Assembly: GCA_964016885.1 (NCBI GenBank)
Contig: OZ024742.1
Location: 250,666,001 to 250,730,000, forward strand
Reading direction: 5' to 3'
Source of the DNA: Eledone cirrhosa
Taxonomy: Eukaryota
DNA: 64,000 bases
Numbering within the stretch: position 1 is the stretch's first letter; every line of letters starts with the position of its first letter. Shown piece by piece: positions 16,957 through 18,211 of the stretch. The translations under genes and the position numbers were made by a program. The notes below the pieces were generated by a model that was given only the letters and a program-made list of their open reading frames with translations, searched no databases and was not told where the DNA came from.

Positions 16957-17341
16957 AATTAAGCATACAGTGTATTGCAAAATACACTATATATACATTC
17001 ATATATATATCGCTATTTCAGAGCACCAATTCAAATTTTCAATTTCTGCTTGACCGGCAACCGCTCTGTATAATCAGTTACTGATTATTACTAGAATTCT
17101 ATAAGAATCAAACATTCATGATTTTCAGCAAACAGGTGGAGTACTTAGCTTTGATAAGTACCAAAAAGTACGAAACAGAGCTCTGTCAGCTTTATCTCCC
17201 CTGTTTGCTGAAAATTTAAAGTAAGTGAGACTGTCACAATAGCGTAAGGTCTTCGAAATGCTTTTAATTAAGCATACAGTGTATTGCAAAATACACTATA
17301 TATACATTCATATATATATCGCTATTTCAGAGCACCAATTC
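16957..17341 (+). mobile_element. Retrozyme-like element 1: 309-nt monomer plus a 76-bp terminal direct repeat
   Basis: 16957-17032 is identical to 17266-17341. It contains the hammerhead at 17121-17215 and several perfect hairpins, and its 3' end joins (TA)n. Confidence 0.8.
17121..17215 (+). ncRNA. Extended type I hammerhead ribozyme, U3-A8 core variant, predicted cleavage after GUC at 17187
   Basis: agct-TTGATAA-gtac-caaaaa-gtac-GAA-A-cag-agct-ctg-T-C-agct. Helix I is extended by attttcagcaaacagg(t)ggag / ctcc-cctgtttgctgaaaat across a tactt/ttat internal loop. Confidence 0.88.
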
Positions 17342-17342
17342 T

Positions 17343-17882
17343 AATATATATATATATATATATATACATACATATATATATATATGTATACATATACATA
17401 TATATATACATATATATATATATATACATATATATATATATATACATATATATATATATATACATATATATATATATACATATATATATATATATACAAA
17501 TATATATATATATACATATATATATATATATACATATATATATACAAATATATATATACATATATATATATATATATACATATATATATATATATACATA
17601 TATATATATATATACATATATATATATATATACATATATATATATATATACATATATATATATATATACATATATATATATATACATATATATATATATA
17701 TACATATATATATATATATACATATATATATATATATACATATATATATATATATATACATATATACATATATATATATATATACATATATATATATATA
17801 TATATATATACATATATATATATATATATATGTATACATATATATATATATATATATGTATACATATATATATATATATATA
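17343..17882. repeat. (TA)n array with periodic C, between the two retrozyme-like elements
   Basis: Direct observation. Confidence 0.97.
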
Positions 17883-17883
17883 T

Positions 17884-18211
17884 TTTGGATTTAATGCTCT
17901 GAAATAGCGATATATATGTGAAGACAAACATAGAATATTCGAAAATATTCTGTATGTTTATAATAAACATTTTGAAGACCTAATCGCTATAGAATAGAAT
18001 ACGTCACGTATTACAATTTGAGATTCTCGATAAAAGCAAGGGAAGTAACCTACGCGTTTCATTCTTATTAGAAATCATCAGGATTACATATCCAATGCTT
18101 TTATCGAGAACGACACAGCTAGAGACTTATAGAATACTTAGCTGTGTACAGGAACTGGTTTGAAAGAGCGGTAGCCGGTCCGGCAGAAATTAGAATTTGG
18201 ATTTAATGCTC
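17884..18211 (-). mobile_element. Retrozyme-like element 2: 312-nt monomer plus a 16-bp terminal direct repeat
   Basis: tttggatttaatgctc at 17884-17899 and 18196-18211. The reverse complement is collinear with element 1 (aatttctgc..gaccggc.accgctct, attctataag, atagcg..aggtcttc.aaatg, atatatatcgctatttcagagca). Confidence 0.8.
18024..18110 (-). ncRNA. Type I hammerhead ribozyme, predicted cleavage after GUA (between 18051 and 18050)
   Basis: Reverse complement gtaatc-CTGATGA-tttc-taataa-gaat-GAA-A-cgcg-T-A-ggttac. Helix I is extended by a 15-bp ttctcgataaaagca/tgcttttatcgagaa duplex, and loop III is the palindrome cgcg. Confidence 0.82.

Follow-up and report, generated by a model that had tools for sequence, protein, structure and literature searches.

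The window analysed here, 64,000 nt of Eledone cirrhosa contig OZ024742.1 (assembly GCA_964016885.1, positions 250,666,001 to 250,730,000, forward strand), contains two units of about 310 nt, each with a hammerhead motif, that lie on opposite strands of a (TA)n array. What kind of element are they, and how did they reach this site? Our overall reading is that both elements, E1 and E2, are copies of a non-autonomous hammerhead retroelement (a non-LTR retrozyme) mobilised in trans by a Penelope-like element (PLE), most likely of the Neptune type; we put its probability at roughly 0.8. We regard the assignment to the retrozyme type as nearly certain and mobilisation by a PLE as very probable. The features are as follows, in window positions.

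16770..16873 (-): repeat family Y, TA-ending 3' end, adjoining the inverted arm of E1
16895..16960 (-): second arm of E1, 66 nt long, inverted and truncated, retaining 11 nt absent from the + unit
16957-17344 (+): E1 as a whole (repeat scan, alignment)
16957..17033 (+): partial upstream unit of E1, equal to the 77-nt terminal repeat (repeat scan)
17034..17344 (+): full unit of E1, 309 nt in the window and ~320 nt in the family, terminating at the tailed (A) end
17041..17066 (+): conserved 5' block, with a small hairpin and a strand pairing with the tail; candidate protein-recognition site
17123..17214 (+): E1 hammerhead domain, with a long helix I extension, a U3-A8 core from 17151, a palindromic helix III and a predicted cut at 17187/17188
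17311..17344 (+): E1 tail, ~34 nt, spanning the untailed (B) to the tailed (A) end positions
17344..17883 (no strand): (TA)n/(TACA) array, target of the E1 and E2 insertions
17884-18211 (-): E2 as a whole (repeat scan, alignment)
17884..18195 (-): full unit of E2, 312 nt, young subfamily, with the tailed (A) end at 17884
17884..17918 (-): E2 tail, ~35 nt
18024..18110 (-): E2 hammerhead domain, with a C3-G8 core from 18081, a basal U.U in helix II, a 2-bp palindromic helix III and a predicted cut at 18051/18050
18196..18211 (-): partial upstream unit of E2, 16 nt, whose outer 4 nt (18208-18211) are common to element X
18208..19252 (+): element X, the non-coding 3' part of a young PLE family that terminates in (TA)n and meets E2 head-to-head; minimal hammerhead motif at 19133

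The repeat scan of the window delimited both elements. An exact 77-nt repeat (16957-17033 and 17266-17342) gives E1 a period of 309 nt, and an exact 16-nt repeat (17884-17899 and 18196-18211) gives E2 a period of 312 nt. An initial annotation, made from the letters of the window, had both periods and the 16-bp repeat right; it gave the E1 repeat as 76 bp, and it missed the inverted arm at 16895-16960 and the head-to-head, two-armed architecture described below. The unit of the family is ~310-321 nt, and the E1 unit in the window is without the 11 nt, hence 309 rather than ~320. The two elements are collinear, as had been proposed, and 67% identical over the unit in the alignment. Their description as non-coding also agrees with the reading frames, since those lying entirely within units reach at most 54 aa and the longer ones traverse the TA array.

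We compared the two elements with their relatives in the genome. Among 40 scored of 1,867 first-look candidates for E1, the best relatives were 94-96% identical to it; among 39 scored of 440 candidates for E2, the best were 99-100% identical and mostly tandem. Judged by these identities, E1 and E2 are separate insertions of two subfamilies into one TA tract at different ages, E1 being the older and E2 the recent one. The tail-to-tail arrangement that the initial annotation had reported is therefore real but is the outcome of two independent insertions. A third subfamily, E3, yielded 2,728 first-look candidates, and the pairwise identity among the three subfamilies is 67-80%.

The 26-nt block common to E1 and E2 (17041-17066) had 17,976 exact matches in the source genome (3.0 Gb), and its reversed control had none. 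The 3' ends lie in TA, and a multicopy repeat targeting TA is what had been anticipated. The first 100 block matches listed correspond to 24 insertions, of which 17 are E2-type (1-14 matches each) and 7 are E1-type (1-2 matches each). Extrapolation from these 100 matches gives a family of roughly 4,000 insertions, with E3 additional. In the same 100 matches, young E2 insertions carry up to 14 block matches and the older E1 insertions 1-2. The longest E2 array has 23 units, so the term monomer, applied at first to these elements, understates the family. One E1 insertion was found twice together with its flanks, inverted and ~320 kb apart (L019 and L020, C2:384.97 Mb and 384.65 Mb), and the pair would be a segmental duplication or an assembly duplicate.

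The descriptor scan found the core UUGAUAA..GAAA..GUC from 17151 (+) in E1, with a predicted cut after 17187, and the core CUGAUGA..GAAA..GUA from 18081 (-) in E2, with a predicted cut after 18051. A single type I hammerhead per element at an equivalent relative position had been claimed and was recovered, and the RNA starts foreseen at 17188 (+) and 18050 (-) coincide with the predicted cuts. Neither element matched an Rfam family at the gathering score. The best ribozyme model at both sites was Hammerhead_HH9 (RF02275, clan CL00010), with scores of 24.5 and 20.6 bits (cut-off 52), which makes the likeness one of topology rather than of family membership. The miRNA matches in the sub-threshold Rfam scan were artefacts of the TA array. 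Elsewhere in the window, the scan returned additional hammerhead-like motifs at 46465-46532 (+), with a 6-bp helix I and an 8-bp helix III, and at 14178-14212 (+). Family Y (1057 first-look candidates) has a hammerhead-like core without helix II, and short inverted pairs are frequent in it. A 323-bp tandem repeat at 61287-61932 (two copies, 88% match) belongs to a different dispersed family.

The predicted folds of both elements were more stable than those of shuffled sequences (z-scores of -6.5 for E1 and -5.1 for E2; none of 100 shuffles was equally good), and the predicted circles were 58-63% paired. The hairpins and helix I extensions named in the initial annotation are present in these folds. 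We then aligned 24 of the 70 distinct full units, eight each from E1, E2 and E3, to a structure taken from RNAalifold with two hand-added pairs (3-8 and 10.1-11.1) and thus derived from the aligned sequences themselves. Pairing was retained in 96.1% of the alignment cells, and 28 of 65 pairs had changed on both sides across the three subfamilies, which bears out the claim that the helices swap sequence yet stay paired. None of 500 shuffles reached the observed covariation, a figure that is not a probability, as only three lineages stand behind the covariation and the shuffle control overstates it; controls in which the structure was slid along the alignment gave 36-45% pairing and 3-6 such pairs. 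Covariation was strongest in helix I, its extension and helix II. The tertiary 3-8 pair was C-G in 16 of the 24 sequences and U-A in the other 8, and U3-A8 is a recognised variant of PLE hammerheads (PMC4209133). Two long-range helices of the tail were nearly invariant, so they lend no support to the pairing but mark a constrained region; in the predicted structure, the tail and the 5' block base-pair across the unit junction. An extra-stable tetraloop, suggested at first as a conserved trait, was rejected, because E3 has GCCA or GCCT at this position and the UUCG of E2 is closed by U-A.

An intact-core pattern was fitted by 198 of 239 distinct units, and the remaining 41 include truncations as well as misses of the pattern. 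Helix III is palindromic and only 2 bp long in E2, and the catalytic fold of the monomer was less stable than its free fold by 2.9 kcal/mol (E1) and 3.6 kcal/mol (E2). These two properties suggest, at the level of predicted folds, that cleavage would take place in a dimer and that the monomer would be protected, as reported for other metazoan type I motifs. E2 and E3 carry U.U at 10.1-11.1, the base of helix II, and an axolotl ribozyme that shares this feature shows poor cleavage in its monomeric form (PMC7229834). According to a 2026 preprint, cleavage was seen in only one of nine tested elements.

We next examined how the insertions are built. The 3' ends of the arms fall at two fixed positions. 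Position A, the tailed end, accounts for 77 ends, 74 of them 10-12 nt beyond the tail block; position B, the untailed end ahead of the tail block, accounts for 63, and 8 ends lie elsewhere. TA-rich flanks border 71 of the 77 A ends and 49 of the 63 B ends; of 1,274 background positions, 16% are TA-rich. The tail is ~34-35 nt, and the diagnostic bases of E2 and E3 are mostly lost at B ends, indicating that the B junction precedes the unit's own AT run in most copies. Among 59 raw head-to-head pairings, 47 were A+B, 4 were A+A, none was B+B and 8 had one other end; among these, L019 and L020 contribute one A+B pairing twice, the script broke a single array into two, and three of the A+A cases resemble internal junctions. 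The samples from the DNA search are enriched for tailed ends, whereas a chromosome-1 sample was unselected. There, 23 of 24 insertions were examined, 18 of the 23 were two-armed, and 17 of these 18 were A+B, for which hand arithmetic gives a chance of ~8 in a million if ends are independent and 50:50. The usual insertion thus consists of two head-to-head arms within (TA)n, one with the ~34-nt tail and one without.

Judged from sequence, this combination of tail and inverted arm is the published signature of PLEs. An inverted truncated arm with a one-sided tail of 30-40 bp has been described for them (bioRxiv 10.1101/2021.04.23.441226), and work on a PLE protein that cuts both strands and extends them has shown the tail to be the stretch separating its two reverse transcriptase (RT) start sites; the signature was termed unique to PLEs (PMC11167929). 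The link to Penelope-like machinery is therefore stronger than the initial annotation knew.

The genome holds candidate helpers. It contains 10,596 GIY-YIG first-look candidates, ORFs with both RT and GIY-YIG domains, and young PLE families with many open frames of 775-796 aa. From the cysteine motif ahead of the GIY-YIG domain, read by eye, the local PLEs appear to be Neptune-type. They end in (TA)n, and a young Neptune-type family encoding 775 aa shows both end types, tailed and untailed, paired as A+B (L154, L187). Read by eye, the terminal repeats of local PLEs (L141, L142, L146 and the 3' regions of L111-L123) have U3-A8 hammerhead cores, and their helix III is a 6-nt palindrome. No PLE sharing the unit sequence was found among 70 loci from a handful of families (L111-L160, L181-L200), and the retrozyme-like units at those loci are separate insertions. 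An apparent RT fragment at another locus (L024) was not confirmed on re-examination. At least four more hammerhead-bearing families with (TA)n ends and a palindromic helix III were seen, some with terminal repeats or fold-back arms. Their positions are:

L193:7650-8270 (-)
L194:6735-7240 (-)
L135:2771-2951 and L106:6111-6292 (-)
L149:7083-7184, L158:5608-5705 and L091:3276-3395

Retrozyme-like elements have apparently undergone a radiation in this genome.

Family X, which meets E2 in the window, was considered as a possible partner. It has 1,453 first-look candidates (99% identity) and a long C/A-rich 3' region; its minimal hammerhead is mutated at position 15.2 in the window copy, and its RT is 32% identical to the 775-aa protein, with weak Pfam matches. 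The 5' end of E2 joins the 3' end of X through 4 shared bases, and the same geometry with the RT of X occurs at L098, but across a 200-N assembly gap. No row of E2 units lay beside X in 39 other X copies. A search for systematic chimeras found a sense hammerhead in 1 of 25 single-arm flanks and an antisense one in none, with a scanner that misses the mutated motif of X. At L107, an X-related copy is found 2 kb away from a two-armed insertion of the usual kind, and shared TA targeting may explain such proximity. No tail of X was visible, as all 20 fetched ends were of one type in a selection that was biased. A partnership of X with the retrozyme, drawn from the window and L098, is a weak lead.

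What RNA would the RT have copied? Across 232 E2 units in 47 insertions, units differed at 1.09 positions within an insertion and at 0.6 positions across arms (308 pairs), against 2.15 and 2.67 positions between insertions in two sub-groups. Several young E2 arrays of 7-14 units had no unit-level differences. Both arms of an insertion carry a single haplotype. Only 2 of 188 arm 5' ends lay within 3 nt of the predicted cut, where ~4 are expected if ends are uniform, and a pile of 5' ends at unit position 1 was an artefact of detection. The 5' ends thus ignore the cut, which excludes a linear cleaved monomer as template and implies that the RT reads through the cut on a ligated circle or an uncleaved multimer. 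Between these two, we lean towards the circle. The initial annotation had taken a monomer plus a partial repeat as the trace of a circle; the structure is compatible with this, but an uncleaved multimer fits it equally. In four sequencing runs of unspecified kind, contigs cover E2, and one X4 contig returns at 312, which fits a tandem array and a circle equally. Changes fixed in whole insertions, on the RNA strand, leaned towards A>G over T>C in E2 (7 vs 0) and E3 (4 vs 0), and not in E1 (3 vs 6); four more G>A changes in E2 become A>G when the sister subfamily is taken, by eye, as the reference. The lean of E2 and E3 may reflect RNA editing by ADAR or tolerance of G.U pairs, and the latter would predict an identical skew.

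In one alternative, uncleaved linear multimeric transcripts of arrays serve as the PLE template, with a weak or vestigial hammerhead inherited from a PLE terminal repeat and no circle. This account explains TA targeting, the A and B ends and read-through of the cut site, and also the shared haplotype if source arrays are homogeneous. It agrees with a catalytic fold that is disfavoured in the monomer and with in vitro work in which uncleaved RNA was the dominant PLE substrate and priming was independent of hammerhead cleavage (PMC11167929). A vestigial hammerhead sits poorly, however, with a core kept through a compensatory C3-G8/U3-A8 switch between subfamilies only 67-80% identical, and the linear template with base-pairing of the tail and the 5' block across the unit junction. 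Moreover, RNA circles have been demonstrated for coral, mussel and axolotl retrozymes (PMC7229834). We consider this alternative improbable.

Still less credit is due to two others, which we judge very unlikely and about equally so. In one, the arrays are satellite DNA that originated in PLE ends and grew in place through unequal crossing-over, following a published array model, in whose source 24 of 57 Xenopus retrozyme families are terminally homologous to known transposable elements, nearly all of them PLEs (bioRxiv 10.64898/2026.07.22.740005). The 23-unit array at C2:381.02 Mb, in which unit variants recur 2-4 times, does point to local expansion after insertion at that site. Local expansion accounts badly for thousands of dispersed sites, for arrays on both inverted arms with fixed and different ends, for longer arrays in the younger subfamily and for strand-specific RNA covariation. 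In the other, an autonomous coding PLE, so far unsampled, would be the source, and the units its terminal repeats (pLTRs) in 5'-truncated form. PLE insertions are mostly truncated to the terminal repeat, the end architecture is identical, and the 70 PLE loci viewed are few beside the 10,596 GIY-YIG first-look candidates. Yet the units stand head-to-tail without an ORF, and a PLE protein match of any kind occurred at 4 of 150 retrozyme loci, none with the unit as the 3' repeat of the ORF. Two findings named beforehand as contrary to a retrozyme did not appear, as the family is not single-copy and the unit was the terminal repeat of an RT-GIY-YIG ORF at 0 of 150 loci.

For the preferred reading, a retrozyme mobilised in trans by a PLE, we propose the following course. 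Tandem genomic units would be transcribed, and successive hammerheads would release a ~310-nt monomer, probably as dimeric ribozymes given the palindromic helix III; a host ligase would then circularise it, as in other animal retrozymes. The RT-endonuclease of a PLE would bind the conserved multiloop of tail and 5' block. Both strands of the (TA)n tract would be nicked; the TA targeting is observed in the insertions. For each strand, RT would have its own fixed start on the RNA, the two starts being separated by ~34 nt; that ends occur at two fixed places and pair with one another is seen here, and their identity as RT starts follows PMC11167929. Each RT would read on past the ribozyme cut site, covering less than one turn in some cases and many in others, and 5'-end joining would then unite the two cDNAs. 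The insertions have the corresponding form of (TA)n, reversed units, forward units and (TA)n; one of the ends is tailed, the other is not, and a single haplotype runs through the insertion. A more elaborate scenario goes further. A dimeric Neptune-type protein would nick both TA strands and copy one retrozyme circle from two fixed starts, rolling in both directions, so that each insertion would be the fossil of a single RNA molecule, A-to-I edits included; the second arm would occasionally be primed on the helper's RNA, the E2-X junction being such a chimera and X the helper. As a whole, we consider this scenario speculative and rather unlikely.

By its genomic sequence, the family has every hallmark of non-LTR retrozymes as the main text of PMC7229834 describes them: a non-coding, low-GC tandem unit (150-450 bp in that account), a single type I hammerhead per unit, many dispersed copies, a monomer predicted to be self-paired and co-existing autonomous PLEs. 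It shares with them the short palindromic helix III and, with the axolotl HHR_Amex2, the U.U at the base of helix II. It differs in its (TA)n targeting, inverted second arms, one-sided tail and, in one subfamily, a U3-A8 core; RNA circles were seen there, whereas the present family is known from genomic DNA. The words 'inverted', 'tail' and 'microsatellite' do not occur in that main text. The vertebrate retrozymes (bioRxiv 10.64898/2026.07.22.740005) are likewise non-autonomous and PLE-linked, averaging ~316-342 bp in amphibians and coral; in the main text, 'tail' is absent and 'inverted' is limited to one reference title. Mobilisation by PLEs was proposed in both sources from co-occurrence and pLTR homology, and the preprint ascribes arrays to local amplification. 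In contrast, no homologous pLTR was found here in 70 PLE loci, the connection with PLE chemistry comes from insertion scars, and the arrays, by their sequence, suggest deposition at insertion. In the literature covered, consisting of main texts with subscription papers mostly outside it, we found no published account of this family or of retrozyme insertion scars; an octopus repeat annotation (PMC13282606) does not mention ribozymes in the part available, and PMC10886601 refers to retrozymes in passing only. The element class, animal retrozymes, is already known, and what this family contributes is the insertion scars that bear directly on its mobilisation.

The closest likeness in insertion form is to the Neptune and Naiad PLEs, whose insertions contain partial tandems and a 5'-truncated inverted copy, favour microsatellites and usually have a tail of 30-40 bp on one end (bioRxiv 10.1101/2021.04.23.441226; PMC11167929); all of these traits are also seen here. 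Endonuclease-bearing PLEs also carry terminal-repeat hammerheads, including U3-A8 forms (PMC4209133), although Naiads lack hammerheads. The present family differs from them in its ~310-nt unit without an RT or GIY-YIG ORF and in a hammerhead of canonical type with a long helix I extension, the PLE motif being minimal. The mobilising enzyme of retrozymes, and whether a circle is the template, have so far been argued from co-occurrence and homology. Here, thousands of insertions, some nearly free of mutations, carry the PLE tail signature, near-strict A+B pairing and one haplotype in both arms, and the host genome also holds intact-looking Neptune-type ORFs, which makes the mobilisation question testable with the published in vitro priming assay for PLEs. 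The family thereby provides a minimal PLE substrate of ~310 nt on which the start sites are mapped, and its sequences suggest that each strand is served by one of the two PLE start sites.
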